32,525 bases of DNA from a virus (IMGVR_UViG_651053023_000008); one strand, 5' to 3'. Shown: positions 10,109 through 32,525, counted from the stretch's first letter. The notes: generated from the sequence alone by a model not told the origin. Numbers and translations: made by a program.

Positions 10109-10122
10109 ATGCCTCCGGCACC

Positions 10123-10752: not shown

Positions 10753-10753
10753 T

Positions 10754-12792: not shown

Positions 12793-12794
12793 GC

Positions 12795-13094
12795 ATGGCC
12801 CGAAAACTGAAGCCGTTAAGTCGCGGAGAACGGGCCGTCGTGCGGCAGCTAGCGTACTGTCTTGTGCTCGCGGATATTGAGCAAAACGCCATTGCCTGTG
12901 CATACGAACAACAGACCGGAAAGCCCTGGAACCCGGATGCACCGGATACCCCCATGAAACGTGCCCTGCGTTCATCACCGGCATGTGCGCGGCTGTGGAA
13001 GCTGCTGGGTAAGGATATCCGCTCCGTTCGCGAAGAAATATACGCCGGTCTGAAAACACCGGGAACTGAAGACGGGGGCCGTCGTGAACCGTAA
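12795..13094 (+). CDS. hypothetical protein
   Basis: 99-aa ORF upstream of the terminase genes. Confidence 0.45.
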   Translation: MARKLKPLSRGERAVVRQLAYCLVLADIEQNAIACAYEQQTGKPWNPDAPDTPMKRALRSSPACARLWKLLGKDIRSVREEIYAGLKTPGTEDGGRREP

Positions 13095-13231
13095 AAAGAA
13101 TCCGATAAGTAAAGCGTCCCGTGATGAACTCCGCCGTCTGGCGCACAACCTGACATGGCGGGAAATCCAGAGCGGCGCACTGAAATCTGCATACGAAAGT
13201 TTACAGCGTAGTGAGCAACAGGAGGGCACAC

Positions 13232-13813: not shown

Positions 13814-15345
13814 CACAAATGGATACGTTCAGTGAATATGATGTTCTGCTGCCGTATCAGAAACGCTGGGTGGCGGATGATGCCGACCTGAAAATTGCCG
13901 AGAAATCCCGCCGTACCGGTTTAACCTGGGCGGAAGCGGCGGATGCGGCACTGACGGCATCACTGAAGAAGGAAGACGGCGGGCGCGATCACTTTTATAT
14001 CGGTTCGAATAAGGAGATGGCCCGCGAATTTATCGACGCCGTGGCGATGTGGGCGAAAGCGTTTAATGCGGCAGCGGAAGAAATCTGCGAGGAAGTGATC
14101 ACCGACGAAGACAAGGACATTCTGACGTTCGTCGTGTACTTCGCCAGCGGTTTTAAGGTCAAGGCATTGTCCAGCAACCCGAGCAACATTCGCGGGATGC
14201 AGGGGAATGTCACCATCGACGAGGCCGCGTTCCATGAAAAACTGGACGAGCTGCTGAAGGCTGTGCTGCCGCTGAAAACATGGGGCGGCAAAATTCGCCT
14301 TATTTCCACCCATGACGGCGTGGACAACCTGTTTAACCAGCTGATTCAGGAAAGCCGCGCGGGCAAAAAAGATTACAGCATTCACACCATCACGCTGGAT
14401 GACGCCTGCAATGACGGGCTGTACCGGCGTATCTGTCAGGTGCGCGGCATGGTGTGGTCACCGGAAGCCGAAGCGGAATGGAAAGAAGGTCTGCTGCGAA
14501 ATACCGCCACCCGCGAAGACGCACTGGAAGAATATTACTGCGTCCCGAAAAACGGCGGCGGCACGTATATCCCCCGCTCACTGCGTGAACGTGCGGCCTG
14601 TGGCACCGGGAAAGTGTTGCGCTTTACCGGCACACCGGAATTTAACGCACTGACGGAAAGCCAGCGCCGGGCAGATATCCGGGAATGGCTGGAAACAGTG
14701 GTGCGCCCTGAACTGGAAAAACTCCCGAAGAACCTGCGCCACTGTCTGGGGGAAGACTTTGCGCGTTCGGGTGACCTGACCGTACTGGCCCCGGTGACGG
14801 TGAACGATGACACCACCCGCGAGGTGCCGTTTCTGGTTGAGCTTGGCAATGTGCCGTTTAAACAGCAGGAGCAGGTGCTGTTCTGGCTTTGCGATCGTCT
14901 GCCCCGCCGTGACGGCATCAAAATGGATGCGCGGGGGAATGGTCAGTATCTGGCAGAACAGGCGGCGGAGCGGTACGGCGACGAAGTGGAACAGGTGATG
15001 CTGTCCGTGGCGTTCTACCGCGAAAACATGCCCCGTTTCCGTGCGGCGTTTGAAGATGATGAGCTGATCCTTCCGAAGCATGAAGACGTGATCAATGACC
15101 TCGGGGCCATTCAGTTACTGCGTGGCGTTCCCGGCATTGATGATTCACGAACCAGAGGCAGCGACGGTCACAAACGTCACGGCGACGCCGCTGTGGCCAT
15201 TTTCCTGGGCTTCCTTGCCAGCAAGGATGACTGCCACCGTTACGAGCTGCACCGCCTGAACCGCCCGGCGAAACCGGAAGAACGCAACGCGCGCCGCCAG
15301 ATGAAGCTGACGCGCGGCCTGAAAAATGAGGGAGGTTTACTGTGA
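13810..15345 (+). CDS. terminase large subunit (Mu gp28-like)
   Basis: 511 aa; overlapping start and stop with neighbours; position between gp27-like and portal. Confidence 0.8.
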   Translation: MTQMDTFSEYDVLLPYQKRWVADDADLKIAEKSRRTGLTWAEAADAALTASLKKEDGGRDHFYIGSNKEMAREFIDAVAMWAKAFNAAAEEICEEVITDEDKDILTFVVYFASGFKVKALSSNPSNIRGMQGNVTIDEAAFHEKLDELLKAVLPLKTWGGKIRLISTHDGVDNLFNQLIQESRAGKKDYSIHTITLDDACNDGLYRRICQVRGMVWSPEAEAEWKEGLLRNTATREDALEEYYCVPKNGGGTYIPRSLRERAACGTGKVLRFTGTPEFNALTESQRRADIREWLETVVRPELEKLPKNLRHCLGEDFARSGDLTVLAPVTVNDDTTREVPFLVELGNVPFKQQEQVLFWLCDRLPRRDGIKMDARGNGQYLAEQAAERYGDEVEQVMLSVAFYRENMPRFRAAFEDDELILPKHEDVINDLGAIQLLRGVPGIDDSRTRGSDGHKRHGDAAVAIFLGFLASKDDCHRYELHRLNRPAKPEERNARRQMKLTRGLKNEGGLL

Positions 15346-16913
15346 ACCTGAAACAACTGGCCGGGGCCGTTCGCCGTCTGCTGAACCCGGCAACCGGTGA
15401 GGAAGACACGCTGAAAAAAGAGGCGCTCAACGAAGCACAGGCACGTCCGCGTCATGCCAGTGTGCGTTCGGCCTCGCCGGGCGTCAGCATTGCTTCCGGG
15501 CTGAATCCCGGCAGGCTGGCAGGCATTCTGCGCAATGCTGCCGACGGCACCACGCGTGACTTTTTTATCCTTGCTGAAGAGATGGAAGAACGCGATTTGC
15601 ATTACGCCTCGGTGCTGCGCACCCGCAAGCTGACGGTGGCGGGTATCGAACCGGTGGTGGTGGCCGCCAGTGATGACGATGCTGACGTGCAGCTGGCGGA
15701 CGCCATCCGTGCACTGATGGAAGCACCGCAAATCCCTGAGCTGATGTTTGATCTGCTCGACGGGCTGGGAAAAGGCGTGGCGGTCTGTGAAATTTTGTGG
15801 AACACCCGCAACAACCACTGGGTGCCCCGTGATTATGAGTGGGTTGATCCCCGTTTTCTGAAAGCCGAAAAACCCACGCTGCGCCAGTTCCGCCTGCTGA
15901 CTGACGATGAACCGGTGGATGGCGTACCGCTGACACCGGGAAAATTCATTGTTCACCAGCCGCGCCTGAAATCCGGTCTGCCGCTGCGTAACGGTCTGGC
16001 CCGTCTGGTGGCGGTGATGTACATGCTGAAATCCTTTACCGTGCGTGACTGGTGGGCATTCGCGGAAAAGTTCGGCATTCCGGTTACGGTGGGGAAATAC
16101 GGTCCCAACGCCACGGAGGAGCAAATCCGCGTGCTGATTGACGCGATTGCGTCCATTGCCTCGGATGCCGGGTGTGCCATTCCGCAGTCCATGCAACTGG
16201 AGATGCAGGAAACTGCCAGCCGGAATAACGGCGGCGCACTGTTCTGTGAAATGGCGGAATGGTGTGATGCGCAAATCAGTAAGGCCGTGCTGGGGCAGAC
16301 CATGACCACGGATAACGGCAGTTCGCGCTCACAGGCGGACGTGCACAATCAGGTGCGCATGGACATTGTGCGCTGGGACGCGCGGCAGCTGGCTAACACG
16401 CTGAATGAATTTCTGGTGCGGCCCTACATCGAGGCCAACTACGGGCCACAGGCGCACTACCCCCGTGTTGTTCTGCGTATCAGTGAAGCCGAAGATCTGA
16501 AGGCGCTGACAGATGCTCTGGTGCCGCTGATTGACCGGGGGATGCGGGTTCAGGAATCGGAGCTGCGGGACCGGTTCGGCCTGGCTGAACCGGACGACGG
16601 GGCTGATGTTCTGCATCCGGTTTCTGCCGGAATGTCAGGTGATATGGCGATGAACCGCGAGCGCGTCGCCCTGAACCGTGAACACTCCGACGAACTGGCG
16701 CTGATGGTGGATGATGCCCTGCGTGACTGGCAGAAAACCGGCGAGGTGTTCACGAACCCGGTGCTGACACTGGCGCAGGAATGCGACAGTTTTGATGACT
16801 TTCTGAAACGCCTGCCTGAGCTTCAGGAAACGCTGAACGCGGACGACTTTGCCCTGCAACTGGCGGAGGTGTGCTTTAAGGCCCGTGCGCTGGGGGACAC
16901 TGCTCATGCGTGA
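15342..16913 (+). CDS. H: portal protein (Mu gp29 / H-like)
   Basis: 523-aa ORF following the terminase; Mu-like portal family by sequence pattern and position. Confidence 0.8.
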   Translation: MNLKQLAGAVRRLLNPATGEEDTLKKEALNEAQARPRHASVRSASPGVSIASGLNPGRLAGILRNAADGTTRDFFILAEEMEERDLHYASVLRTRKLTVAGIEPVVVAASDDDADVQLADAIRALMEAPQIPELMFDLLDGLGKGVAVCEILWNTRNNHWVPRDYEWVDPRFLKAEKPTLRQFRLLTDDEPVDGVPLTPGKFIVHQPRLKSGLPLRNGLARLVAVMYMLKSFTVRDWWAFAEKFGIPVTVGKYGPNATEEQIRVLIDAIASIASDAGCAIPQSMQLEMQETASRNNGGALFCEMAEWCDAQISKAVLGQTMTTDNGSSRSQADVHNQVRMDIVRWDARQLANTLNEFLVRPYIEANYGPQAHYPRVVLRISEAEDLKALTDALVPLIDRGMRVQESELRDRFGLAEPDDGADVLHPVSAGMSGDMAMNRERVALNREHSDELALMVDDALRDWQKTGEVFTNPVLTLAQECDSFDDFLKRLPELQETLNADDFALQLAEVCFKARALGDTAHA

Positions 16914-17670
16914 AACCTTCATCCCGAAAGAGGCGCTGGCGTGGCTGAAGGCGAAGAAGCTGCGCCCCGGTTTTGATTACCGGGATGTATGGCGGGAAGA
17001 ACACCGGAACAGCTTCACCGTGGCAAAAATGCTGCAACTGGATTTGTTGTCGGATGTGAAAGCCCTTGTGGAAGACGCCCTGCAAAGCGGGCAGACGTTC
17101 AGCGAGTTCCGGGAGATGCTGCAACCGTTGCTGATAAAACGCGGATGGTGGGGCGTACAGGAGATGGATGATCCGCTGACGGGTGAAACCCGCACCGTGC
17201 AACTGGGCAGCGACCGCCGCCTCCGCACGATTTTTGACACCAACATGCGCACCGCCCGCGCGGCGGGCCAGTGGGAACGCATTCAGCGGACAAAGCGGGC
17301 CATGCCGTATCTGATTTATGAGCTGGGGCCATCCCGTGAGCACCGGGCGGAGCATGTGAAATGGGCGCGTCTGTGTCTGCCGGTAGATCATCCGTTCTGG
17401 CAGACACATTTTGCCCCTAACGGCTGGGGCTGCAAATGCACCATCCGTCAGGTCAGCCGTGGTGAGTATGCGCAACTGGCGGCACAGGGCACCATTCACA
17501 CCGAAGCGCCGGAAATCAGAACTGTCCGCTGGGTGAACAAACGTACGGGCGAAGAGGAAGAGGTGCCGGAAGGGATTGATCCGGGCTGGAACTACAATCC
17601 CGGCATAAACCGTGAGCAGGAGCTGGCGCGCCAGCTGGCGACCAAACAGGCCCGTTTTGACAGTGAGTAG
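16906..17670 (+). CDS. F: head morphogenesis protein, Mu F family
   Basis: Internal ATG 16906 overlapping the portal stop; 254 aa. Confidence 0.7.
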   Translation: MRETFIPKEALAWLKAKKLRPGFDYRDVWREEHRNSFTVAKMLQLDLLSDVKALVEDALQSGQTFSEFREMLQPLLIKRGWWGVQEMDDPLTGETRTVQLGSDRRLRTIFDTNMRTARAAGQWERIQRTKRAMPYLIYELGPSREHRAEHVKWARLCLPVDHPFWQTHFAPNGWGCKCTIRQVSRGEYAQLAAQGTIHTEAPEIRTVRWVNKRTGEEEEVPEGIDPGWNYNPGINREQELARQLATKQARFDSE

Positions 17671-17812
17671 CCCTCCCGCCGTAAATCCCCCTGAAACGCA
17701 TCAGAAACGCGTTTTTTATTCTGATGGCGTGAATGTGCATTCTGACGTTTTTGAAGATGCTGTGGCGTTTTTGAAGGGGGTTTTGAAGGGGGTGTTTCCC
17801 CGTTTTCAGTGA

Positions 17813-17835
17813 AGCCGGTAAATCCGGCTTTTTTT
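17813..17835 (+). terminator. rho-independent terminator (second copy of the element found after mor)
   Basis: Stem AGCCGG 17813-17818, loop TAAAT, stem CCGGCT 17824-17829, T-run 17829-17835. Confidence 0.7.
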
Positions 17836-17884
17836 CTGCCTTCCGCATACTGACCGTCGGTAACCCCAAACGACGGAGACTGAC

Positions 17885-18847
17885 ATGCAACCGGAACTGC
17901 TGGCGCTGTGTTTTTCCCTGCCAGAACCCATCCCTGAGCTGACACCTGCTCAACTGCCGGAATGGCTTGAACTCGTCCCTGCGGGTGAGTTCACCGGGCG
18001 CGATGGCCGGACGTGGATTAACCGCAATCCGCATGAGGTGGTCACCCGCTCGTCCGACATCAAAATTCCGGTGGACATTGAACACGCCACCGAAATTAAA
18101 GGGCAACGCGGTGATGAAGCCCCGGCGTATGGCTGGGTGGAAGAACTGCGCGTGACGGACAGCGGCACCATTGAAGGCCGTGTTGTCTGGAGCGAGTACG
18201 CCCGGTGGATGCTGAGCGAACGCCGCTACCGCTATTACAGCCCGGCGTTTTTCTTTGACGCAGACGGTGTGGTGACGCGCCTGTCCAGCGTCGGGCTGAC
18301 CAACAAACCTAACCTGGACTTTCCTGCACTGAATACGGAGAAAAACCCGATGACAGTACCTGTGCAAATCACCGGCCTGCTTGGGCTGGCTGAATCTGCC
18401 ACGGTGGACGATACCGTGGCCGCCATTAAACAACTTCAGGAGAACGAACAGGTGGCGCTGAACCGCGCACAGACACCTGACCTGACGAAGTTTGTGCCGG
18501 TGGAAACCCACAATCTGGCACTGAACCGTGCCGAAACCGCAGAACAACGCCTTCAGCAACTGGAAGAGAAGGAAGCAGAAGCGCTTGTGGATGCGGCCAT
18601 CGAAGCCGGAAAAGTGGCCCCGGCAAACCGTGACATGTTCCTTGCCACCTGCCGCACGGAAGAAGGCCGCAAACAATTTGCGGAATACACCAAAGGTGCA
18701 CAGCCGCTGGTGAACAACGACAAGCCCAGCCAGGGCAAGGATAAACCCGCGCAGACACTGACCGACGCCGAACTGGCGATGTGCCACAGCATGGGTATTA
18801 CCGGGGAAGAGTTCCTCGCCGCTAAACCTAAACAGGAGAATAACTGA
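17885..18847 (+). CDS. I: head maturation protease and scaffold (Mu I family)
   Basis: 320 aa; N-terminal protease-like domain, C-terminal Ala/Glu/Gln-rich helical scaffold-like region; directly upstream of the major head gene. Confidence 0.8.
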   Translation: MQPELLALCFSLPEPIPELTPAQLPEWLELVPAGEFTGRDGRTWINRNPHEVVTRSSDIKIPVDIEHATEIKGQRGDEAPAYGWVEELRVTDSGTIEGRVVWSEYARWMLSERRYRYYSPAFFFDADGVVTRLSSVGLTNKPNLDFPALNTEKNPMTVPVQITGLLGLAESATVDDTVAAIKQLQENEQVALNRAQTPDLTKFVPVETHNLALNRAETAEQRLQQLEEKEAEALVDAAIEAGKVAPANRDMFLATCRTEEGRKQFAEYTKGAQPLVNNDKPSQGKDKPAQTLTDAELAMCHSMGITGEEFLAAKPKQENN

Positions 18848-19749
18848 TGGGAGCAGTCACTTCCGAAGTCCTTCACGCGCTGACCACCTGTCTGAGCGCC
18901 GCTTATACCCGTGGTCTGAGTGGTGTCACCCCACAATGGCAGCGCATCGCCTCTGAAATCCCGAGTTCGTCCGCTTCCAATACCTACGGCTGGATGAAAG
19001 ATTTACCGGAGATTAAGGAATGGGTCAGCGCCCGTCAGATGGCAACGCTGGACGGTTATGGTTACACCCTTGCGAACAAAACCTGGGAAAGTTCGATCCG
19101 CGTTAAACGCGAACACATTGAAGACGATCAGATTGGTCAGTACAGCATTATCGCTGAACGCTATGGCCGCCAGACGTCGGAGTTCCCGGACAAGCTGTGT
19201 TACCCCCTGCTGTGTGCCGGGTTTAACACCCTGTGTTTTGACGGTCAGAACTTCTTTGATGAAGACCACCCGCTGGGCGACGGCACCTGCAGCAACGTTG
19301 TCGGCACCCCGGCATCAGACCAGGGAGAACCGTGGTTCCTGATTGATGATTCTCAGGTACTGAAACCCATCATCTGGCAGACGCGACGCGCCTTTAAGTT
19401 TGAAGCCCTGGATGATCTGAACAGCGAGCACACCTTCAAGAATAACGAGTTCCTTTACGGGGTGGACGGTCGCTGCAATGCGGGCTTCGGCTTCTGGCAG
19501 ACCGCCGTCGGTTCCCGTGCGGCACTGACAGCGGAGAACTACGAGAAGGCCAGCAATCTGCTGCTGGGTATGAAGGCCACCAACGGTGAACCGCTGGGCA
19601 TCCGCCCGACCACCCTTGTGGTGGGGCCGAAAAACCGTGCAGCCGCGAAGCGCATCATTGACGCCATGCTGGTTAACGGCGGCGATTCCAACATCTGGTA
19701 CAAGGATGTGGACATCGTGGTCAGCCCGTTCATCACCACCCCGGCATAA
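18847..19749 (+). CDS. T: major head subunit (Mu T family)
   Basis: 300 aa, ATGA-coupled to I; matches the Mu-like major capsid protein family in length and position. Confidence 0.8.
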   Translation: MGAVTSEVLHALTTCLSAAYTRGLSGVTPQWQRIASEIPSSSASNTYGWMKDLPEIKEWVSARQMATLDGYGYTLANKTWESSIRVKREHIEDDQIGQYSIIAERYGRQTSEFPDKLCYPLLCAGFNTLCFDGQNFFDEDHPLGDGTCSNVVGTPASDQGEPWFLIDDSQVLKPIIWQTRRAFKFEALDDLNSEHTFKNNEFLYGVDGRCNAGFGFWQTAVGSRAALTAENYEKASNLLLGMKATNGEPLGIRPTTLVVGPKNRAAAKRIIDAMLVNGGDSNIWYKDVDIVVSPFITTPA

Positions 19750-19832
19750 CCCGTCATCCGTAATCTGTTGTAACCCGCAATGACTGGCTGATTAGCTGTA
19801 TCGGCACCAACCTGTCACCGCACCCGGCGTGG

Positions 19833-20426
19833 ATGTGGGCCGCGTCATACGGCGCAACGGCAGCGTATCACCTTGCCATTGACCCGGCGCGTCCGCTTCA
19901 GACGCTGGTCCTGACCGGCATTCTGCCGCCTGCGCGTAATGTTCGCTGGGATATGCCGGAACGTAACCTGCTGCTGCATGACGGCATTGCCACGCACATG
20001 GTGGACGCCGGGGATAACGTCTGCATAGAGCGTGAAATCACCATGTACCGGGTTAATCAGTACGGTGATGCGGATGTGTCGTACCTTGATGTGCAGTCAC
20101 CCGCCACGCTGGGCCGTATCCGTTACATCATCAAGAACCGTTTCACGAACCGTTATCCGCGCCACAAGCTGGCAGATGATGACGTGCTGGACTCACTGGA
20201 TGCCGGTCAGCCGGTGATGACGCCGAAGCTGTGCACCGCAGAGCTGCTGGATATCTGCCAGACCGAACTTATTCCTGCGGGCCTTGTGGAGAACTTCAGC
20301 GATTACAAGGACACGCTTCAGGTGACACGCGACAGCAGCGATAAAAACCGTCTGAACTTTATCTGTCACCCGAATCTGGTGAACCAGCTGCGTGTGCTGG
20401 CAGGCCTGATTCAGTTCAAGCTTTAA
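19833..20426 (+). CDS. hypothetical tail-region protein; possibly the C-terminal remnant of a contractile-sheath gene
   Basis: 197-aa ORF. The reading frame is open upstream to 19764 with no start codon and no ribosome-binding site before ATG 19833; it sits where the sheath gene would be in Mu. Confidence 0.4.
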   Translation: MWAASYGATAAYHLAIDPARPLQTLVLTGILPPARNVRWDMPERNLLLHDGIATHMVDAGDNVCIEREITMYRVNQYGDADVSYLDVQSPATLGRIRYIIKNRFTNRYPRHKLADDDVLDSLDAGQPVMTPKLCTAELLDICQTELIPAGLVENFSDYKDTLQVTRDSSDKNRLNFICHPNLVNQLRVLAGLIQFKL

Positions 20427-20435
20427 GGGGGCCGC

Positions 20436-20783
20436 ATGGCAAAAATTCTTGGCATGGCGACCATTCGCGTGAATGGCCGCGAAATTAAAACCGAGGGGAA
20501 ATCCACGCTGAATCCGGGCGGCTTCAGTCGCACCCAGCATATGGGCGGCGGCAAGGTCTGGGGTATCTCCAGCAAGATGGCCTCGCCGTCCATCAAGGTG
20601 ACCATTGCGGCGGCAGCGGATATGGACGTGATTGAAATCAGCAGCTGGGAAGACGTCACGGTGATGTTCTACGGCGACAACGGCCTGAACTACATGATGA
20701 CGGGTCCGCCACGGATAACCCGGCGGAGCTGGACGAGGATTCCGGCACCATCAGTGCGAACTTTATCGGTGAAAAATGCGTGA
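20436..20783 (+). CDS. tail tube protein (Mu M-like)
   Basis: 115 aa directly upstream of the chaperone and tape-measure genes. An alternative 3' end in another frame would stop at 20791. Confidence 0.55.
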   Translation: MAKILGMATIRVNGREIKTEGKSTLNPGGFSRTQHMGGGKVWGISSKMASPSIKVTIAAAADMDVIEISSWEDVTVMFYGDNGLNYMMTGPPRITRRSWTRIPAPSVRTLSVKNA

Positions 20784-20792
20784 AGGTGTGAC

Positions 20793-21288
20793 ATGGCTGA
20801 AATGGAATTTGAACTGAAACACGGGCTTCTGACCGGCAAAGGCACGGCAGATGAAACCCTGCATAAAACCGTGAAGCTGCGCGAACTGACCGCCAGTGAT
20901 GTGATTGATGCACAACTGGCCGCAGAACGCGTCGTCATGGGCGGGAACGGAAAGGCGGTGGCCTACTGCTCTGAAGTGCTGATGGGGCTGGAGATGATGC
21001 GCCGTCAGGTTGCGGCCATCGGCAGCATTCCCGGCCCGCTGGACATGAAACAGCTGCGAATGCTCCACCCGGCAGACCTTGAGCTTATCAGCACGAAAGC
21101 CGCTGCGCTGGATGACATGCTTGAGGAGGTGGCAACGCGGGGGCGAACTGATGCCGCTGGCGGCGGCACTGATGAACCTGCTGGTTAACCTGTCCCAGCG
21201 ATTCAGCATTCAGTACCTGGAACAGCTGCCCCTGCGGCAGCTGTTCCGCCTGATAAAGCAACTGGAGAAACAGCATGGCAACAGGTAA
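20793..21288 (+). CDS. tail assembly chaperone with a putative programmed frameshift (short product 20793-21188; extended product to 21288)
   Basis: Two overlapping frames; the second frame has no independent ribosome-binding site and ends at the tape-measure start. G5 run at 21139-21143. Confidence 0.6.
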
Positions 21289-23122
21289 CCGTCTCAGCAC
21301 GGAAATCATGATCAACCTTGCCGGGAACCTGACCGCCAAAGCCCGGCAATACGGCGCAAATATGTCGCAGTTCGCCCGGAATCATCAGAAGGCCATGCGC
21401 CTTGTCAAAGCCACAACGGAGGCCGCAGGACGCGGCCTTGATACGCTGGGTAACCGCTACACGGCGATGATTGCCGGGTTCGGTGGTGGTATGACCCTTA
21501 AAGGCCTGACAGATTTTGATGCACAAATCCGCCGTGCGGGTACAAATGCAAAACTGACCGATGAGCAGGTATCCCGTTTAAGAAAAAACATCCGGGAAAC
21601 AGCCAGAATGTCAGACATTCGCCTCAGTGCGCAGGTTTTACTGGAAGGCCAGGATGCACTGTATGGCCTGACAGGTAAGCCGGAATTTGTTGAAAAAAAT
21701 ATCCGCAATCAGGGGCTGGCCACGCAGGCATTCGGGACTGCGCCACAGGATGTCGCGGCACTGATGGCACAGATGTCCGAAAAACAGATTGAAGATCCTC
21801 AGGAAGTTGAAGACATGTTCGACCGCTTCTACCACCAGTTTTCCATTGGTTCGGTTGGTGTGGATCAACTGGCGCGCGTATCAGCAAAACTGTTTTCGAT
21901 TTATACCGGTGGTGGCAAAGAGGCGATGGCCCAGTTGGGGGCACTTGAGCAGATGCTGGCGAAAACAACCGGTTCTGCAGATGAAGCGGTAACCGCGCTG
22001 AACAGTATCTGGAGTGAAGTCACCCGAAAAGACAACATCAAGTTTCTGAAAAGAAACGGTGTTGATGTGCTTGATCCAGTCACAGGGAAACCCCGTCTGC
22101 CCTATGACGTGATCAGAGACGTTGTCAGGCGGGCAAAATTTAATGAGCAGAATTTGCAGGATGTTTTCGGGGACACCTCCATGCGGGGATTAAGGGCGCT
22201 GTCCAGTGAAGAAGCCCTTCAGTTAACAGAAAAAATGATTTACGCCCCGGTTGAATCCGGTGCCATGAAAAAAGCCGCGGAGAAAAACGCCCAGAGTTTT
22301 CAGTCTGCGATGCAGTCCCTGAAGAATGAATATGAGGTTTTTGCTGAAAAAAATCTGGCAAAACCCGTTCAGGACCTGGCGGATGCGCTCAACAGCGTGG
22401 ACCAGAACACCGTCCAGAACTGGTTGCAGGTCGGTAAATATATGGCGATTGCTGTGGGCGGCATTATCGCCATCCGAAAAACGTACCAGTTAGGTAAAAC
22501 CCTCCACGACATCATGAATCCCAAAGGGAAAGGCAAAGGAATACCCGGTGGCATTACAGATGTTTTCGGCTCCGGTGTGATGCCGGTTTATGTGGTTAAT
22601 ATGGGCAGTGGCGGGATGAATGGTAATACCGGCGGTCTGCCGGATACACCAGATTCATCGCGCAATCCCCGCAATCCTCGGGGGCCGGGTAACCGTGGAG
22701 GAAAGGCAGGTAAAGGCGCTGGCATCATTGCCGGTGCTCTGGAGTTTTACGATTTTCTGACCACACAATACGCCCTGCCGGGTGAGGTTGACAGTCTCAC
22801 TAAATCCGTTGCCGGTGATGCCAGCGCCAGCCCGCGGGAGCGCGAGTTCGCGCAACAGAGTCAGGACAACCAGAAAGCGCTCGAGTCCGTCTGGCGTAAG
22901 GTAACGGACTGGTTTGACTCGCTGAACGGGAAGAACATCGGCGGGATGCCGTCATGGGGTGGAATGCAACCCTCGCAGCTTGCACCGTTTCTTTCTCAAC
23001 AATTGCAGGGGGAAATCCGCGTGGTGGTGGAAGGTGACGCCCGCGTGAAAAGTGTCAGAGTGGATCAACCCGGCGTCAGACTCAGTGCGCAGGCTGGCGT
23101 CACCAGCGTGGAGCAAGGGTAA
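21275..23122 (+). CDS. tail tape measure protein
   Basis: 615 aa; helical with a Gly-rich hydrophobic segment; preceded by the frameshifted chaperone. Confidence 0.75.
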   Translation: MATGNRLSTEIMINLAGNLTAKARQYGANMSQFARNHQKAMRLVKATTEAAGRGLDTLGNRYTAMIAGFGGGMTLKGLTDFDAQIRRAGTNAKLTDEQVSRLRKNIRETARMSDIRLSAQVLLEGQDALYGLTGKPEFVEKNIRNQGLATQAFGTAPQDVAALMAQMSEKQIEDPQEVEDMFDRFYHQFSIGSVGVDQLARVSAKLFSIYTGGGKEAMAQLGALEQMLAKTTGSADEAVTALNSIWSEVTRKDNIKFLKRNGVDVLDPVTGKPRLPYDVIRDVVRRAKFNEQNLQDVFGDTSMRGLRALSSEEALQLTEKMIYAPVESGAMKKAAEKNAQSFQSAMQSLKNEYEVFAEKNLAKPVQDLADALNSVDQNTVQNWLQVGKYMAIAVGGIIAIRKTYQLGKTLHDIMNPKGKGKGIPGGITDVFGSGVMPVYVVNMGSGGMNGNTGGLPDTPDSSRNPRNPRGPGNRGGKAGKGAGIIAGALEFYDFLTTQYALPGEVDSLTKSVAGDASASPREREFAQQSQDNQKALESVWRKVTDWFDSLNGKNIGGMPSWGGMQPSQLAPFLSQQLQGEIRVVVEGDARVKSVRVDQPGVRLSAQAGVTSVEQG

Positions 23123-24396
23123 TGACAACAGGCAATGGCAAATGGGACGGGCTGCGCGACGCCTCGTTTCGCGGCGTTCCCTTCTTTCTGGTGGATACAG
23201 AAGGCACCGGTGGCCGCAGGGCTATTCCCCGTGCTTACCCCCGGCGTGAAACCGCCTGGACGGATGATAACGGGGCCGTTCCCGGTCAACAACAGATTAA
23301 CGCAAAGCTGCCAGGTAAAAACTTCCGGGATGATTTAAACGCCCTTTTAGACGCGCTCAATACCCCAGGCCCCGGCGAGCTTATCCACCCGTGGTTCGGG
23401 ATACAGACCGTACAGGTTGGCAAGGTCACTCATCGCCTCAGCACGGAGGAAGACGGCATTGCGTATGTCACCTTTGAAGTGTTTGAGGCAGGCGAGCGCC
23501 TGTTCCCGTCTGCGGCGGATAACACGCAGCAGGAAGTGCTAACGGGCATTGATGCGGTGAAAGCCGCCATTGACGATGGCGACTGGTTCGGCGCACTCGA
23601 CGGGCTGGGTGAGATGGCCGACAGCTTTCTGGCCGATATGGAAAACCTTGTGGCTAACCTGCCCACGCTACCGGCAGCACTGAATCAGTGGATGGACAGG
23701 CTGAACCATTTTAAGGAGATGGCCGGAACCATCATTGCCACGCCGGGGCGTCTGGTCAGTGAGTTGTCCTCGTTCATCGACGGCGTGGTTGATCTGGTGA
23801 CGGAACCACCCGAAGCACTCGCGGTTTACACGACATTACGCAACCAGTGGGTCGGAGAACGCGCCCGACAGGTTGCCACCGGCGCACTGCCGGAAGATAT
23901 CACCGTGAAGCCAGGCAGCGTGGCAGACGGCGAAATCGGCTTTGCCATCGGTCTGTCACCGGGTTATCAGCCGGTATCTGACAGCCTGCAAAAGAACATT
24001 GATGACTTCCGCCAGGTGGTTGTGCTGGAAACCCTGCTGGGACAGGCAAATGCCGTGGCCTCGATGACGTTCGATACCAGTGATGCGGCATTATCTGCTG
24101 GTGACACGCTGGCGGCTGAACTGCATGAGCAGGCGGTGGCGGCGGTGGAAAATAACCAGCGGGCATTATGGCGAACGCTGCGCGATTTACGGCAGGCCGT
24201 GATTACGGATGCCCGCGAGCGTGCCGCCCGTCTGCCGGAAACCCGACAGGTGACGCTGACCACAACCACATCTGCCGCATTGCTGGCATGGCGCGAACAT
24301 GGTGACACAAGCCGACGGGATGAAATCGTGCAGCGTAACCGCCTGCGCCATCCGTCATTCATCCTGCCAACGCAACCAGTGGAGATTACCGACTGA
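23122..24396 (+). CDS. P: DNA circularisation protein-like tail protein (Mu P family)
   Basis: 424 aa; N-terminal region resembles the Mu gp43 N-terminal domain; position after the tape measure. Confidence 0.65.
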   Translation: MTTGNGKWDGLRDASFRGVPFFLVDTEGTGGRRAIPRAYPRRETAWTDDNGAVPGQQQINAKLPGKNFRDDLNALLDALNTPGPGELIHPWFGIQTVQVGKVTHRLSTEEDGIAYVTFEVFEAGERLFPSAADNTQQEVLTGIDAVKAAIDDGDWFGALDGLGEMADSFLADMENLVANLPTLPAALNQWMDRLNHFKEMAGTIIATPGRLVSELSSFIDGVVDLVTEPPEALAVYTTLRNQWVGERARQVATGALPEDITVKPGSVADGEIGFAIGLSPGYQPVSDSLQKNIDDFRQVVVLETLLGQANAVASMTFDTSDAALSAGDTLAAELHEQAVAAVENNQRALWRTLRDLRQAVITDARERAARLPETRQVTLTTTTSAALLAWREHGDTSRRDEIVQRNRLRHPSFILPTQPVEITD

Positions 24397-25467
24397 TGGA
24401 ATCCGTGATTCTTACCGTTGACGGCAAATTGTGGGAAGGCTGGACGGAAATGTCCGTCAGCCGTTCCCTGAAGGCGATTGCCGGTGAGTTTGATCTCAGT
24501 GTGACAACCCGCTGGTCAGCGGCGGCACCGCGCGTGATACGTGAGGGGCAACCCTGCACGGTCAGGCTGGGTGCGGATACCGTGCTGACAGGGTATATCG
24601 ATGATTTTATCCCCAGCTATGACGCAGATAACGTGGAGATTCGCGTCATGGGGCGCGACAAAAACCGGCGACCTGGTGGACTGCTCTGTGGTGCATTCAT
24701 CCGGGAAATGGAAAGGCGTGCGGCTGGAACAGGTAGCGGCTGATGTCTGCCGCCCGTTCGGGATAGCCGTCATCACGGAAACCCCGACCGGGGAGGCGTT
24801 TGCGTCCGTTGTTCTGGAACAGGGTGAAACGGGCTTTGAACTGCTCGACCGGCTGGCAAAACAGCGCGGCGTTCTGCTGACGTCTGACGGCGCAGGTAAC
24901 CTGATTATCACCCGCGCCTCTTCCGTTCGCGCGGGCGTGTCACTGGTGCTGGGGAAAAATATCCTCGCCGCCCGTGGGCGCTTCAGCTGGCGGGAGCGTA
25001 ACAGCCAGTACATCATCAAGGGCACCACCAGTGCCGGTGGCAAACTGTGGGACAGCCAGCCTGCCTCGATGGTGGGTGGTCGCCAGTACATCACCGAAGA
25101 CCCGGAAATTAACCGTTACCGCCCGCGCATTCTGGTCAATGAAGACAGCCTGACCGTGGGCGGGGCCAGCATTCGCGGGGAATGGTACAAAGCCCGGATG
25201 CTGGGGGAATCCCGCACGACGGAAATCACGGTGGCAGGCTGGCGCGAACAGGGCGACAGCGGCCCGCTGTGGCAGACCAACCGCCTTGTCGATATCGACG
25301 ACAGCATTCAGAACCTGAAAACCACCTGGCTGATATCCGGGGTGACCTGGACGGATGGCGCACAGGGGCGGATGACGGTTCTGGCGCTGGTTCCGCCTGA
25401 ATCACTGGATATGCCGGAAATGAAAGCGAAGACGAAGAAAACAAAGGCGGTGGCCACATGGGATTAA
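24396..25467 (+). pseudogene. baseplate hub protein (Mu Q-like) with a +1 frameshift in an A5 run (24660-24664)
   Basis: ORFs 24396..24743 and 24601..25467 join into one 357-aa product (..VMGRDKTGDLVDCSVV..) if one A is removed. Confidence 0.6.
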
Positions 25468-25994
25468 ACGCAATTGCCCGCCGTCTGCGGCTGCTGGTTG
25501 ACCGTGCCGTTGTGCGCATGGTGTCTGACAGTCTGGAGCGGCAGAACCTGCAAATCCAGACGCTGGCTGATGCCACCGACGACGACGTGGAACGCTTCCA
25601 GAACTACGGGTTTACTTCCGTTCCGCCGGAAGGTTCTGAAGCCATCGTGCTGGCCGTGGGCGGACGGCGTGACGGGCTGGTTGCCATCGCGGTGGAGGAC
25701 AAGCGATGTCGCCCGAAAGGCCTGTCCCCCGGTGATGTCCGGCTGTATCACCAGGACGGTAAATCGCATATCACGTTAAAGAAAGGCGGAATTATTGAAA
25801 TCACAGGAGAACAATTAAACGTTTCAGGGAAAACGGTAAATCTCACCGCCGACGAATTGCTGAATATTATCGGTAAACAAATGAAATTCGTCGGTCCCTG
25901 TGAATTTACTGCAGATGCCACAATCAACGGTAAATCTTTCATCAAACACATTCATAAGGACGGCGACAATGAGAAGACATCACCGCCCATATGA
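25458..25994 (+). CDS. baseplate spike protein (gpV-like)
   Basis: 178 aa, overlapping the end of the Q-like gene; position in baseplate cluster. Confidence 0.55.
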   Translation: MGLNAIARRLRLLVDRAVVRMVSDSLERQNLQIQTLADATDDDVERFQNYGFTSVPPEGSEAIVLAVGGRRDGLVAIAVEDKRCRPKGLSPGDVRLYHQDGKSHITLKKGGIIEITGEQLNVSGKTVNLTADELLNIIGKQMKFVGPCEFTADATINGKSFIKHIHKDGDNEKTSPPI

Positions 25995-26443
25995 CGACCG
26001 GAATCCGCTGGAATAATACTCTCTCACGGGGTGACATCACCGTCACCCATAACGGCCTCTCACTGGATGAGGGGCTGGTCACTCAGGTTCTTATCTGCCT
26101 TTTCACTGATGCCCGTGCTGATGACGATGATGTCATTCCAGATGGTTCCGGCGACCCGCGCGGCTGGCCGGGCGACACGTACAGCGATTTTTCGTGGGGT
26201 TCCCGCCTGTGGCTGCTTGAGCGCGAAAAACTGACGGAAGATGTCCGCCTGCGCGTGGAGGATTACGCGCGACTGTCCATGCAACCGCTGCTGCGGGCCG
26301 GTTACGCCCGTAACGCCACCGTCACGGCCAGAATCATCGTCCCTGACCGTATTGCCTTTCAGGTGGTGTTAACCCGCCCGGACAAAACCACGCTCACAAT
26401 CGAAATCACCCGCCGATGGGAGGCCACCATTAATGCCGTATGA
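25991..26443 (+). CDS. baseplate protein (Mu gp46-like)
   Basis: 150 aa, translationally coupled between the spike and J-like genes. Confidence 0.55.
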   Translation: MTTGIRWNNTLSRGDITVTHNGLSLDEGLVTQVLICLFTDARADDDDVIPDGSGDPRGWPGDTYSDFSWGSRLWLLEREKLTEDVRLRVEDYARLSMQPLLRAGYARNATVTARIIVPDRIAFQVVLTRPDKTTLTIEITRRWEATINAV

Positions 26444-27510
26444 AATCCCCACGCTGGGCAAACTGATTGCCGACGGCGAAAAAGATATTGCGTATGAACT
26501 CGGCCTGCAAAAGCTGCCGCCTGTCAGTGTTGAGCAGGCGCTGAATGTGTCATTCAGCAGTCAGGTCCGGGATTTATACGACCATCAGAGCTGGATCAAG
26601 GACCAGATAATTCCGTCCACTACGTCTGATGATGAAACCATTATCAAAAACAGCAACGTATGAAGGGGTTATCCGCAAGCAGGCCACCTTTGCCAGCGGG
26701 CCGGTGACCTTCACCAGTCAGTCCCCCATTCCGGCAGAAACCCGGATGCAGTCCGACACGAATCAGGTGTATCAGGTACTCACATCCGGCGAGGTACAGG
26801 ACGGCGAGGTCACTGTCATCGTGCAGGCTGAAGAAGCCGGTGTGGCGGGCAATCTTGCTGCCGGTGCCGTGCTGACCCTGTTATCCCCGCTACCCGGAAC
26901 GGGCAGCACAGGCGCGGTGACTGAAAGTGGCATCACCGGTGGCGCAGACATCGAATCCATCGCAGAGCTGCTGGACCGTCTGCTGTATGTGCGCCGCAAT
27001 CCCCCGGTGGGCGGTGCACTGCATGATTACGTCATCTGGGCGCGTGAAGTGCCGGGTGTCAGCCGCGCGTGGGCATGGGATGCGTGGCACGGCCCCGGCA
27101 CGGTCGGGCTGGCATGGCTTTATGATGACCGTGAAGACATTATCCCCACACGGGACGACCTGAAGACAATGGAGCAGTATCTGTTCTGCCACAAACACCC
27201 TGCCACCGGCGTGATGGTGGGCAAACCGGGCGGCATCGAGGTCTGGCCGGTGCAGGTCAGGCTGAAGAAGCTCGACCTGTCCATCCGTCTGACACCGGAC
27301 AGCCAGGCGAACAGGAACGCCGTCCGGGCAAACCTGACCGCATTGCAGAAAACGCTGGCCCCCGGTCAGATGCTGCCGGTGTCCTCGCTGCGCACGGCCA
27401 TCGGTATGACGTCCGGTATCACGGATTACTTCCTCAACATCGGGGAGGACACCACCAGTGATGTGGATGAGCTTATCACCATCGGGGAGGTGACATGGCT
27501 CACAGCGTGA
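26433..27510 (+). pseudogene. baseplate J-like protein (Mu gp47-like) with a +1 frameshift in an A5 run (26646-26650)
   Basis: ORFs 26433..26663 and 26629..27510 join into one 359-aa product (..DDETIIKTATYEGVIRKQATFASG..) if one A is removed. Confidence 0.6.
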
Positions 27511-28079
27511 CGGAATGGCTGACCGCACTGCAACAGGTCATGCCACGGGGTAAGGCATGGCCGCGTGATAACGACGCGGATTTAAACCGTTTTTTAAGGG
27601 CGCTTGCAGAGCGTTTAACCCGCGTTGAATACGACGCCTCGCGTCTGCATGTGGAGATGCGACCGGAAACCACGCTCCAGTTGCTGCCGGAGTGGGAGCA
27701 ATATCTGGCGCTGCCGGAATGCGGAATTGCCGCCACCACAACGGAAGCCCGCCGCCGGGCCGTGGTGGAGAAATACCGCCGCAAAGGCGGGCTGGCCACC
27801 TGGCAGATTGAAGCCGCTGCGGCGGCGCTGGGATTCACTATTAAGGTGACGGCCGTTCTGCCGCACCACTGCCTGCGTGACTGCATGTACCCGCTACATC
27901 CGGCGCGGTATCGCTGGCTGCTGAAAGTGGAAGTCCCGGACAAAGATGCCGGGCGGTTTACCTGTATTGATGACGTCATGACGCCATTAATCAGCGAACG
28001 GACCCGCGAGCTGGAATGCCTGCTGAAGCATTACCGGCTGGCGGGCACGGAATATGAATATTATTACACCGGAGAATAA
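27495..28079 (+). CDS. tail protein (Mu gp48-like)
   Basis: 194 aa following the J-like gene. Confidence 0.55.
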   Translation: MAHSVTEWLTALQQVMPRGKAWPRDNDADLNRFLRALAERLTRVEYDASRLHVEMRPETTLQLLPEWEQYLALPECGIAATTTEARRRAVVEKYRRKGGLATWQIEAAAAALGFTIKVTAVLPHHCLRDCMYPLHPARYRWLLKVEVPDKDAGRFTCIDDVMTPLISERTRELECLLKHYRLAGTEYEYYYTGE

Positions 28080-28082
28080 TTT

Positions 28083-28970
28083 ATGTTTCATGTGGATAAT
28101 CCGACGGGTGTGCCAGTGATGCCACCTGTCGCGGCTGAATTAAGCAAAACAACGCTTTATTTTACCGAAGGCGGGAACGGTATTCCGCCCACTTATCCGG
28201 GGCCGGACTGGTTTAATATTATTCAGTCTGAACTGCTGGAAATTCTCCGGCAGGCAAATATCAAACCGGATAAAAACACAACCGACCAGATTATGACAGC
28301 GCTGAAAAAAACTGTTTATTACGAACAGTGGTTCAGCCGGAGCTATTGCCGGATTAACCGGTCAGAATAATACGTTCCCGTATTTTACGGCGAAGACACA
28401 ATGGCATTAACGCCGCTCAGTGCTTTTGTGCGCGGTATTCTCGGGAAAAACACAGCCGGTGAAATTATCGACGCGCTTTTATTACGTGACACGGTAAATA
28501 AAGCTAATAGTGCTGTACCGAATACCCGCAGGGTCAACGGCATGGCTCTGTCTTCGGATATCACCATCAGCAACATCAGCGGCAACGCCGGAACGGCAAC
28601 CCGACTTCAGACGGCCCGCAGGATTAACAATGTGCTGTTTGATGGCAGCCGCGATATCACGATTTCTGCGGGAATGTCACAAACTGAAGGTGACAACCGT
28701 TACCAGCAAAAAAACACGGCGTCAAAAGCCGGTAATGGCTGGTTTAAGGACACGTCCACCGGGGTGATTATTCAGTGGGGGTATCTCGGCAATGCCAGTG
28801 CCGGGCTGACGTTTCCGATATCATTTCCGTCAGCATGTACCAGCATCACTATTACCAACGCATACACCCGTGCTGATTACTCTATTTCCCTGAAATCGTT
28901 ATCAGCAGCAGGTGCGACATTCAACAGCGAGAATAACGGCGTTATGTACTGGACAGCGATAGGGTATTAA
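28083..28970 (+). pseudogene. tail fibre gene (S-like) interrupted by two compensating indels (extra A in the A7 run 28305-28311; likely missing G at 28389-28390)
   Basis: Conserved fibre N-terminus (MFHVDNPTGVPVMPPVAAELSKTTLYFTEGGNGIPP). The fibre motif GLTGQNNTFPYFT is encoded in frame +1 between the two ORFs; the C-terminal ORF 28401..28970 continues with MALTPLSAFVRGILGK. Confidence 0.55.
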
Positions 28971-29410
28971 TGATGACTATTTATTTCAGCCCATCAACAA
29001 ACGGTTTTTATCATTCTGGCCTTCAGGGTGATTATGAAAATGCGGGAACGTGGCCGAATGATTTACAGGAAATCACGGATGAAGAATATCAGAGACTGTT
29101 ACAGGGCCAGACTGACGGTTTTATTATTGTATCTGGCGAAAACGGATATCCGGTATTAAAAGAACCCGTAATTAACTGGCAGCAGAAAGCGGAAACGCAA
29201 CGCCAGCACCTGCTGGCTGAAGCAAGGGAAATCACCTCCGACTGGAAAACCGAGCTGGAGCTGGGCACCATCAGCGACGATGATAAAGCCCGTCTTACGC
29301 AGTGGATGGCATATATCAAAGCGGTAAAGGCACTGGATTTAAGCACCGTTACTGACGAAGACTCCTTTTATTCCATCAACTGGCCGGAGCGTCCCGATGC
29401 CGCAGCTTAA
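28970..29410 (+). CDS. tail fibre assembly chaperone (Tfa-like)
   Basis: 146 aa immediately after the fibre gene; Tfa-like sequence. Confidence 0.7.
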   Translation: MMTIYFSPSTNGFYHSGLQGDYENAGTWPNDLQEITDEEYQRLLQGQTDGFIIVSGENGYPVLKEPVINWQQKAETQRQHLLAEAREITSDWKTELELGTISDDDKARLTQWMAYIKAVKALDLSTVTDEDSFYSINWPERPDAAA

Positions 29411-31004
29411 AGGTGTGATTAAAACGCCCACGGGAGAACCGCTGGGCGGCGCAACCATTACATTGACCTCCCTGCACAACCGCGCAGGGATTCTGAAAAG
29501 TGTTTTCAGCCATGTCACCACACAGAACGGGGAATATGACTTCCCCGTTCTGCCGGGTGTGTACAGCGTTCGCCTGACACAAAGCACACAGCGCCTTTCA
29601 GAAATCGGTGTCATCCGCGTTTATGAAGATTCAGCGGACGGTTCGTTGAATGATTTTCTGGGTGCAACCGATATTGACCTGCGCCCGGAAGCCCTGAAGA
29701 AATTCGAAGAGCTGGCGCAACAGGCGCAGCAAAGCGCAGAAGCCGCAGCGGAAAGCGAGCGACAGGCCGGGCAACATGTCGCTGATGCGCAGAAGATAAA
29801 GAAAGACTGTCAGACGCTGGCGGATAACGTACAGCAGAACGCAGAAGCCGTAGCGGCCAGCAAACAGCACGTTGAACAGCTGGCCTCAGAAGTTGAGCTG
29901 AACGCCGGGCAGGTGCAGCAGGGCGTGCAGAATGTTACTGATGCGGTAAAAAAGGCGCAGCAGGCAGCAAAGGATTCTGCTGACAGTGCCACAGATTCGA
30001 AAAACAGTGCTGACAATGCGGCACTGAGCGAACAGAACGCACAAAAACACGCGCAGAAAGCTGAACAACACGAGCAGCAGACTAAACAATATGCGCAGGA
30101 TGCAGCGACCGCCGCAGAATCAGCAGAGAACGCCAAAGGCGAAATTGACGAAATTCTGGAAGGTGGCTATCTCAAGATAAAAAACAACTTTCAGGAAATT
30201 GTTGATGCTGGCCCGTCAGCACTGGCTCAGGCCCAATGGAATTTACAGATTTCCGGGGTGAAAAATAAACAGGTAATTGCCACCCCTTATACATGGCCAT
30301 CCAGAACTGAGTATGAACAAAGGGTGCATCTGCCACTCGCCGGGGCTTACGGATTTGGCTACACATTTGAAGACCAAAGCCAGGGGCGAATAAATTTTAA
30401 TGAGGGCTATACGGCGTCGTGGTGGTCACAGTGGGCGAAACCTGGTCGTTATTACGTCAGCGCCAGTGATAAAGAATACCTCGCACCTGAAGGAGAAAGG
30501 TGGGGGATTGTTGATTTGCTGTGGCTTAATGGCAGCGGATATAACGATGCTTCGAAGGTTCTGAAGATACTGGCTTTTTACGACTCAGACGGGCACTTAC
30601 ACATAGGCAAGCGCGTTGGTCAGAGCGACTGGTCAATAAGCTGGCGCAAGCTGGCATCGCTCTCTGATGTCAGGGCCATGCTGTATTCATATATTTATAA
30701 TAATTACAACAGAGAATGGCGAGACCCGGAACTGGGAGGTTTAATTCTGGCGTCATACCAGGGAACCGCAGACGGCGACACAAATATAAAAGTATCCCGT
30801 GGTCAGACTTATCCCGGCTCGCGACTCGCTCCTGTGGCGATAGAATGCCAGTTCACCCCATCCGGCACGTATGCTGCAACACCGCGATTCTACATTACCG
30901 GCTGCAAGAGCAAATCACTCCCCGGAACTTATATTTCATTGTCTGGCGCGCCAACAACATACAGCGACCAGGCATTTGTTGCGCTATTCATGAGGATTGT
31001 ATGA
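29397..31004 (+). CDS. side tail fibre protein (lambda Stf-like N-terminus, coiled-coil shaft, C-terminal receptor-binding region)
   Basis: 535 aa; N-terminus parallels lambda Stf (..TITL......VYSV.L......IRVYEDS.DGSLNDFL); long Ala/Gln/Glu-rich helical shaft; AT-richer 3' third. Confidence 0.75.
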   Translation: MPQLKGVIKTPTGEPLGGATITLTSLHNRAGILKSVFSHVTTQNGEYDFPVLPGVYSVRLTQSTQRLSEIGVIRVYEDSADGSLNDFLGATDIDLRPEALKKFEELAQQAQQSAEAAAESERQAGQHVADAQKIKKDCQTLADNVQQNAEAVAASKQHVEQLASEVELNAGQVQQGVQNVTDAVKKAQQAAKDSADSATDSKNSADNAALSEQNAQKHAQKAEQHEQQTKQYAQDAATAAESAENAKGEIDEILEGGYLKIKNNFQEIVDAGPSALAQAQWNLQISGVKNKQVIATPYTWPSRTEYEQRVHLPLAGAYGFGYTFEDQSQGRINFNEGYTASWWSQWAKPGRYYVSASDKEYLAPEGERWGIVDLLWLNGSGYNDASKVLKILAFYDSDGHLHIGKRVGQSDWSISWRKLASLSDVRAMLYSYIYNNYNREWRDPELGGLILASYQGTADGDTNIKVSRGQTYPGSRLAPVAIECQFTPSGTYAATPRFYITGCKSKSLPGTYISLSGAPTTYSDQAFVALFMRIV

Positions 31005-31570
31005 TGCAGATTAAAGAAATCACCAGCCCCCGTTATACCGAATCCGGTGCGATTGACTGCGACGTTCTGTTTGAGGAAATGGAAGCCCCTGTTCCCTACA
31101 CTGCCACGCCGGACGATACAGCGAAAACCGGTCAGCAAATCTGGCAGGAACTGCAAAGCGGAAAATGGGGTGAAATAACCCCGTTTGCCGTCACGCCGGA
31201 ACTTATCGCAGCGGCGAAGGATGCCAAAAAACGGGAGATTGAGGCATGGCGCACAGAACAGGAGGCGCAGCCATTCACGTTCGAATGGAACGGTCGTACC
31301 TGGAATGCTGGTCCCGATTCGATGGCTCGCATTGCGCCCGTGGCAATGGCCGCAAAAGTGGCAGGTGCACGGGCAACGCTGGGGTGGGGGGATGCAGCAA
31401 ACAGCCTTGTCACCATGACAATGGCGCAGCTTCAGGAGCTGGCAGCAACAATGGCGCAGGCGCAAACCGAGCGCAATACTGTGATTTATCGTCGTCAGCG
31501 TGAGATGAAAGAGCAGCTTTCCCTGTTGACCACACTGAACGAAATAAGAGCATTCACACCCGGCGATTAA
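31001..31570 (+). CDS. tail fibre assembly protein or chaperone
   Basis: 189 aa; ATG overlaps the fibre stop. Confidence 0.55.
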   Translation: MMQIKEITSPRYTESGAIDCDVLFEEMEAPVPYTATPDDTAKTGQQIWQELQSGKWGEITPFAVTPELIAAAKDAKKREIEAWRTEQEAQPFTFEWNGRTWNAGPDSMARIAPVAMAAKVAGARATLGWGDAANSLVTMTMAQLQELAATMAQAQTERNTVIYRRQREMKEQLSLLTTLNEIRAFTPGD

Positions 31571-31693
31571 ATAATCATTTTGTATAGTTTATGACGATCG
31601 ATAACATCATATCGATCGTCGGTTTGCATCATATGTGATTAAATACCCCCAGCCCTCCGGGCGGTCATGTCTGGTTATTACACAGGGGGAATC
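31571..31693 (+). promoter_or_regulatory. com and mom promoter region with Dam GATC sites (31596-31599, 31614-31617) inside 7-bp inverted repeats
   Basis: GATCGAT ... ATCGATC arrangement directly upstream of com, consistent with the methylation-sensitive upstream region of the Mu mom operon. Confidence 0.55.
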
Positions 31694-31879
31694 ATGGACT
31701 CTGTTCGCTGTAAAAACTGCAATAAATTACTGTTTAAAGGAGGTTTTAAGCATATAGAAATTAAATGCCCTCGCTGTAAACGTTACATTGTCATATCGAA
31801 TGCCAAAGAGCATCCCACGGAGCTGTATTGTGGGAAAAGAGAAGAAATCACGCATTCTGACAAAACCCTGCGTTATTGA
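31694..31879 (+). CDS. com: Com zinc-finger translational activator of mom
   Basis: 61 aa from ATG 31694 (AGGGGGA ribosome-binding site); CKNC...x16...CPRC zinc finger; overlaps the mom start. Confidence 0.85.
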
Positions 31880-32525
31880 GTATGAAGGTCGTATTGTCGG
31901 CTATGGTTCAAAGGAGCTACGTGTTGAAACCATATCCTGCTGGCTGGCCCGCACAATCATTCAGACAAAACACTATTCCCGCCGTTTTGTGAATAACTCC
32001 TACCTGCATCTTGGCGTATTCAGCGGACGTGATCTGGTTGGCGTTCTTCAGTGGGGATATGCCCTTAACCCCAACTCAGGGCGTCGGGTCGTGCTTGAAA
32101 CGGATAACCGGGGCTATATGGAACTGAACCGCATGTGGCTACACGACGACATGCCCCGCAACTCTGAATCACGGGCTATCAGCTACGCGCTGAAAGTTAT
32201 CAGGTTACTGTATCCGTCAGTTGAGTGGGTTCAGTCTTTTGCAGACGAACGCTGCGGACGTGCTGGCGTGGTATATCAGGCGTCGAATTTTGATTTTATT
32301 GGTAGCCATGAAAGCACGTTCTACGAGCTGGACGGCGAGTGGTATCACGAGATAGCGATGAACGCGATTAAGCGCGGAGGGCAACGAGGCGAGTATTTGC
32401 GGGCTAATAAGGAGCGGGCCGTGGTACACAAATTTAATCAGTATCGCTACATCAGGTTCCTGAACAAGCGCGCAAAAAAGCGCCTAAACACCAAGCTATT
32501 CAGGATTCAGCCATACCCGAAGTGA
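31800..32525 (+). CDS. mom: Mom DNA modification protein
   Basis: ORF overlapping the 3' end of com and ending at the window edge; sequence matches Mu Mom as I recall it. Start uncertain (ATG 31800 or GTG 31830). Confidence 0.85.

Follow-up and report, generated by a model that had tools for sequence, protein, structure and literature searches.

A One-Base Insertion Private to One Assembly Splits the Mu gp47-Type Baseplate Gene of a Defective E. coli Mu-like Prophage

Results

A Single Extra A Breaks the Reading Frame of a Baseplate J/gp47 Gene

In the window (the whole stretch of DNA that was analyzed, 32,525 nt), the Mu gp47-type (Baseplate_J) gene at 26433..27510 on the plus strand is interrupted by one extra A. 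The two J-like ORFs that result are parts of one gene, an orthologue of phage Mu gp47, and the A4-to-A5 change at 26646-26650 is a one-base lesion private to this assembly. The insertion is neither programmed nor conserved. It is probably a homopolymer-length miscall left in the assembly, a reading that we infer from comparison of the sequence with its relatives. Both ORFs are already in NCBI and the lesion is of a well-known kind; it offers nothing novel on baseplate biology or recoding.

The gene measures 1078 bp here, compared with 1077 bp in all relatives, and is written as two plus-strand ORFs that both start with ATG and overlap by 35 nt. The upstream ORF (26433..26663, 76 aa) encodes 72 native gp47 residues followed by the out-of-frame residues NSNV and a stop. 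The downstream ORF (26629..27510, 293 aa), which lies in the +1 frame relative to the first, begins with seven non-native residues (MMKPLSK) and continues as native gp47 from Thr73 to the end. The plus-strand run at 26646..26650 reads exactly AAAAA, with a C on either side, and constitutes a one-base insertion that shifts the frame. As written, the gene encodes no full-length wedge subunit, its ORF being broken after residue 72, and only the removal of one A restores it: a single uninterrupted ORF is then obtained, with a product of 358 aa. A preliminary description of this DNA had proposed a baseplate J-like gene split by an extra A, with the 76-aa and 293-aa ORFs overlapping and fusing once one A is taken away. 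The overlap and fusion are seen directly in the sequence, and the split itself is borne out by the sequence together with the homologue comparison, but the length of the fused product, given there as 359 aa, had to be corrected to the computed 358 aa.

The Split Pair Is One Gene Orthologous to Mu gp47

The repaired protein matches Pfam Baseplate_J (PF04865) over residues 67-322 with 199 bits (cut-off 21.1; E 1.1e-58), spanning positions 2-255 of the 255 in the profile. The 293-aa ORF alone scores 197 bits (E 3.5e-58) and the 76-aa ORF alone gives no Pfam match; identical proteins in related loci also bear PF26078 and PF26079. Among all PDB chain sequences, the best match is the Mu "Baseplate protein gp47" (9ki1 chain H, 360 aa; E 4.5e-61). 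An alignment to the Mu gp47 family across the junction, suggested in the preliminary description as a check, proved colinear: residues 1-356 of the repaired protein align to residues 1-360 of 9ki1_H, unbroken at residue 72. The frameshift junction falls inside a stretch conserved with Mu gp47, QIIPST...KQAT.ASGP, where the query reads QIIPSTTSDDETIIKTATYEGVIRKQATFASGP and Mu reads QIIPSTADEDE-LLEHCRFWGVRRKQATAASGP. At least 80% of the repaired protein is held as one piece in 74 of 50,697 phage records searched by tblastn; one of the 74 is SfMu, at about 38% identity.

In contractile tails such as that of Mu, the J/gp6-type wedge subunit is gp47; the gp44/gp45 hub and spike form the core around which it assembles together with gp46 and gp48. 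The order gp44-gp45-gp46-gp47-gp48 is present both in the window and in its relatives. The Mu gp44-type baseplate hub gene (24396..25467, plus strand; PF05954/PF22255) is itself split, by an A4-to-A5 change at 24660-24664, and is followed by the gp45-like gene of the baseplate set (25458-25994; PF06890). The gp46-type wedge gene (GP46, PF07409; 25991..26443, plus strand) and the gp48-type wedge gene (YmfQ, PF10076; 27495..28079, plus strand) are both intact and overlap the J-like gene, the former at its start and the latter at its end; 258 blocks of the collection list the exact gp46-type protein. The resemblance to Mu gp47 therefore comprises full-length colinearity and a position between gp46 and gp48 orthologues, and it extends to the element as a whole, a transposable prophage with Mu ends, MuA/MuB and com/mom. 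Unlike Mu proper, the window carries a divergent version of the gene, a member of a widespread group of E. coli Mu-like prophages annotated in RefSeq, and unlike Mu gp47 this copy is interrupted by one extra A.

The ORFs might instead be genuinely separate genes, encoding a small N-terminal and a large C-terminal gp47 subunit. Each has an ATG start and its own protein accession. However, no homologue is split at this point, the junction lies within the stretch conserved with Mu gp47, both ORFs carry out-of-frame residues where they meet (4 at the end of the upstream ORF, 7 at the start of the downstream one), and no SD-like sequence precedes the ATG at 26629. We regard this explanation as extremely improbable.

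All Homologues Examined Carry a Shorter Run and an Intact Gene

In all 48 complete E. coli genomes carrying the gene, the match is one base shorter than the window, at 94-98.8% identity; among the 40 matches listed for these 48 genomes, the 1078-base query is matched over 1075-1077 bases. The features under the matches are named "baseplate J/gp47 family protein," and the four annotations that were opened (4/4) each show a single intact CDS without a pseudogene flag. In base-level alignment, the extra A is the sole indel. Of 26 relative loci compared at site 26646, 24 read AAAA, one AAAAC[G] and one AAGA, all one base shorter than the window, and the loci fetched overall give 31 AAAA and one AAGA. 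AAAAA was present at this site in none of the more than 30 fetched loci, and the gene was out of frame in none of these loci and in 0/48 complete genomes. Two separate genes in homologues, which the preliminary description had named as what would refute its reading, do not occur; the relatives hold one 1077-bp gene.

An intact allele, P0016 (358 aa; CAD5543561.1, EAU8387729.1), has 100% amino acid identity to the window gene minus one A; it differs in having A4 instead of A5, hence a single 1077-bp ORF. In NCBI it is named [quoted passage not shown] An exact match to the repaired 358-aa protein is present on 40 public contigs, in complete Mu-like prophages that occupy many different places in the chromosome.

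Tailed phages use programmed frameshifts in their tail assembly chaperone genes, and full-length gp47 could in principle be made from the A5 allele by programmed or phase-variable recoding, either by a +1 slip of tRNA-Lys on A_AAA_AAC or by transcriptional slippage. A +1 shift of tRNA-Lys between the two overlapping AAA triplets is formally possible and would recreate the wild-type ...IIK-TATYEG...; the trans-frame peptide expected from such a slip is ETIIKTATYEGVIR. Yet the frameshift is not conserved, all relatives being in frame with a 4-base run, and by inspection the context, GAAACCATTATC AAA AAC AGC, shows neither an SD-like stimulator upstream nor a flagged element downstream. The A-site codon AAC is common, being neither a stop nor a rare codon. 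Efficient transcriptional slippage in E. coli needs a run of about 8-9 A/T, and A5 is well below this length. Furthermore, one-base changes also affect the gp44, tube and fibre genes, which is not a regulatory pattern. Recoding is thus a very unlikely explanation.

The Extra A Is Found in One Assembly

In a cluster look-up, the exact 76-aa product is known only as WP_244422676.1 and the 293-aa product only as WP_244422677.1, two consecutive NCBI accessions. An exact protein look-up placed the 76-aa product on no contig on record, and the cluster look-up listed no contig for the 293-aa product. When a 41-mer with the exact A5 sequence was searched against IMG/VR viral contigs and JGI metagenome contigs, it had no match; the exact A4 41-mer had 12 matches in IMG/VR. 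In a species-representative genome set, the A5 41-mer had no match, and neither did the A4 control.

Apart from the extra A, window positions 25282-26909 are identical to loci L026 and L028, and over 25282-32525 (7.2 kb) the window differs from L051 by no substitutions and three single-base indels. These three loci, the closest sequences at 26646, are identical blocks from other insertions. Loci L026-L028, which share the window's exact circularization protein, were considered as copies of the same prophage and rejected, being mosaic relatives without the deletion described below.

The Prophage Is Defective through a Head-to-Sheath Deletion

The Mu-like transposable prophage occupies 1827..32525 on the plus strand, with a canonical Mu L-end (TGTATTGATTCACTTGAAGTACG) at 1827, and the window ends inside mom. 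Its genes run in the order c-type repressor, MuA, MuB, early genes, lysis, terminase, portal, protease and major head, followed by tail, baseplate and fibre genes, with com/mom last. The host DNA on the left (1-1826) consists of E. coli treA with its upstream region and shares 99.9% identity with thousands of genomes; the prophage sits between treA and dhaM, some 125 bp ahead of the treA start codon. The same-lineage draft contigs L034 and L036, in which treA is followed by the repressor gene, are 99.96-99.98% identical to window positions 1-13925 and 1-10941, respectively. L052, also of this lineage and 100% identical to 28410-32525, shows the right host flank, with mom followed by dhaM-dhaL-dhaK-dhaR. 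The treA-dhaM insertion is present in several draft E. coli assemblies, GCA_012305485.1, GCA_033176165.1 and GCA_011938085.1.

A 2.9-kb deletion, with its junction at 19766..19779 on AACCCGCA microhomology, starts shortly past the major head gene and ends within the sheath gene. Lost with it are the gp36-like, gp37/S-like and DUF2635 genes and two-thirds of the sheath, from the N-terminal side; a 197-aa sheath ORF remains (19833-20426). The identical junction is found in L039, an independent short-read assembly, and the deletion is therefore real. Neither this junction nor that of the treA-dhaM insertion occurs in 5426 complete RefSeq E. coli genomes, which places the source genome and its lineage outside that set. 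Because of the sheath deletion, the prophage is tail-defective whatever the state of the J gene.

Seven Run-Length Changes Point to a Probable Assembly Error

When private run-length changes were scored against every relative covering each site, seven were found across the window, and at each of them all the relatives disagreed with it: A3 vs A4 in relatives at 10994 (4/4), G5 vs G4 at 17776 (5/5), GGGT vs GGGTT or GGGGT at 20702-20705 (28/28), A5 vs A4 at 24660 (25/25), A5 vs A4 at 26646 (26/26), A7 vs A6 at 28305 (18/18), and ACGG vs ACCGG or ACGGG at 28388 (22/22). Five or six of the seven alter gene structure, and each repair of a single base yields a protein that occurs elsewhere at 100% identity. 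No contig on record encodes the exact protein of the tube variant (115 aa), the fibre fragment (95 aa) or the gp44 fragment (288 aa). Against these 7 private indels stand only 2-3 private substitutions, a count that applies outside a divergent portal block (15246-16046) and that the size of the panel of mosaic relatives helps to keep low. Even if the indel share is set generously at 0.2, the probability of at least 7 indels among 10 private events is 8.6e-4. All seven changes lie within 10.94-28.41 kb, where same-lineage short-read contigs break (chance P = 0.013). Short-read contigs of the same lineage or with the same deletion (L034 and L039) disagree with the window at each of the three indel sites that they cover (10994, 17776 and 20702).

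A real and very recent frameshift, produced by replication slippage and leaving gp47 as a pseudogene in a sheath-less prophage, is possible but rather unlikely. The 2.9-kb deletion shared with L039 would relax selection on the tail genes, frameshifted Mu-like prophage genes exist elsewhere (as "frameshifted" flags and as a split circularization gene in L009), and NCBI keeps both products as real protein records. Homopolymer slippage is, moreover, the commonest natural indel mechanism (PMC6330053). Nevertheless, substitutions are 4 to 23 times as frequent as small indels in ten bacterial species (PMC6330053), and the excess of seven indels over 2-3 substitutions, remote from any bacterial spectrum measured, has P < 1e-3 even at the indel share used above. 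The sequence surrounding the indels matches intact alleles at 100% identity, and no indel lies outside the prophage segment left unbridged by short-read assemblies. A mismatch-repair mutator would still be expected to add several-fold more substitutions than indels. Same-lineage contigs also contradict the window at the three covered sites, and the frameshift-derived ORFs tested recur in no other assembly, whereas the deletion does recur, in L039. A known cryptic-prophage frameshift is that of jayE, the J-like baseplate pseudogene of the E. coli K-12 prophage e14; the window resembles it in having a J-family gene with a small lesion in a defective E. coli prophage. Such cryptic-prophage lesions, however, are fixed and reproducibly sequenced in many genomes, whereas the lesion in the window is found in one assembly only and is accompanied by indel-only differences. 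If the mutation were real, it would be just one more lesion in a prophage already unable to build a tail. It is hardly credible that a real A5 allele yields some full-length gp47 by spontaneous +1 slippage of tRNA-Lys and that the seven indels, all in the late region, reflect a localised indel-prone process such as error-prone synthesis in abortive Mu replication.

We prefer an assembly error because the change is private, is one of seven run-length changes, and occurs where indels exceed substitutions. A homopolymer-length miscall would have added an A to the A4 run, and the real gene would be the intact 358-aa allele. Other Mu-like prophages in the same genomes probably repeat the 10.94-28.41 kb stretch, which would cause short-read contigs to break there; as many as 5-6 copies per genome are seen. 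In long-read bacterial assemblies, most of the errors that remain are homopolymer-length indels; these cause frameshifts and, specifically in repeats, escape correction by short-read polishing (PMC8812927). In simulated long-read contigs, the errors were mostly homopolymer deletions (PMC8812927). The changes in the window resemble the errors described by Wick & Holt, 2022 (PMC8812927) in being one-base run-length changes that fragment ORFs in repeats, in a stretch where short-read contigs break. They differ from those errors, mostly deletions in simulated contigs (PMC8812927), in that a number of the altered runs have only 2-4 bases. Some points weigh against an assembly error. The shared sheath deletion makes the prophage truly defective, and it would therefore tolerate real frameshifts; if the source were deep Illumina-only data, one would not expect miscalls in runs such as A4 and G3; and none of the same-lineage contigs found spans 26646, their coverage breaking at 10941 or 13925 and resuming at 28410.

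The finding is of use only for quality control, as a flag for probable homopolymer-length errors in the assembly, or at least in its repeated prophage segment. One-base homopolymer differences split phage structural genes into "hypothetical" pairs that enter databases, as with WP_244422676.1 and WP_244422677.1, and comparison with near-identical alleles can tell such artefacts from real pseudogenes.

Other Altered Genes and Minor Differences

The preliminary description had reported the same signature in a second, Q-like gene. The signature was found: the gp44-like gene (24396-25467), which is probably the gene meant, is split by the identical change from CAAAAC to CAAAAAC. The Q-like label was rejected, since this gene is a Mu gp44/P2 gpD-type hub and the portal gene, the analogue of P2 Q (15342-16913), is intact. 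As written, the gp44-like gene consists of a 115-aa and a 288-aa ORF; once it is repaired, its product (356 aa) is identical to the protein of 11 loci.

The loss at 10994 fuses a gp18-like gene (83 aa in L034) with the next, 136-aa gene into a 211-aa ORF (10754-11389). The change at 17776 is intergenic, between the Mu F-like and protease/scaffold genes, and has no coding effect. In the tail tube gene (20436-20783), the loss at 20702-20705 shortens the product from 118 to 115 aa and alters its last ~26 residues; the repaired protein is identical to that of more than 20 loci. The tail-fibre gene (28083-28970) is broken into 95-aa and 189-aa ORFs by a +1 change (28305-28311) and a -1 change (28388), 83 bases apart, with a stop codon within the shifted stretch between them. 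When both are repaired, a 295-aa protein identical to that of L051 is obtained.

Only two private substitutions are clear against the same-lineage contigs: a T for C in treA at 182 and, at 7416, an A for C in a Gam-like gene (7384-7908). The portal-gene block at 15246-16046 contains 14 substitutions absent from the three loci covering it, and the portal ORF is intact (523 aa). This block looks like a recombination-derived mosaic rather than a set of point mutations.

The tail assembly chaperone gene (Gp41_Mu/Phage_TAC_7) lies at 20793-21188 and in relatives is followed by a 45-aa overlapping ORF before the tape-measure gene. This region (20793-21288 here) would be the expected place for a genuine conserved programmed frameshift of tailed phages.
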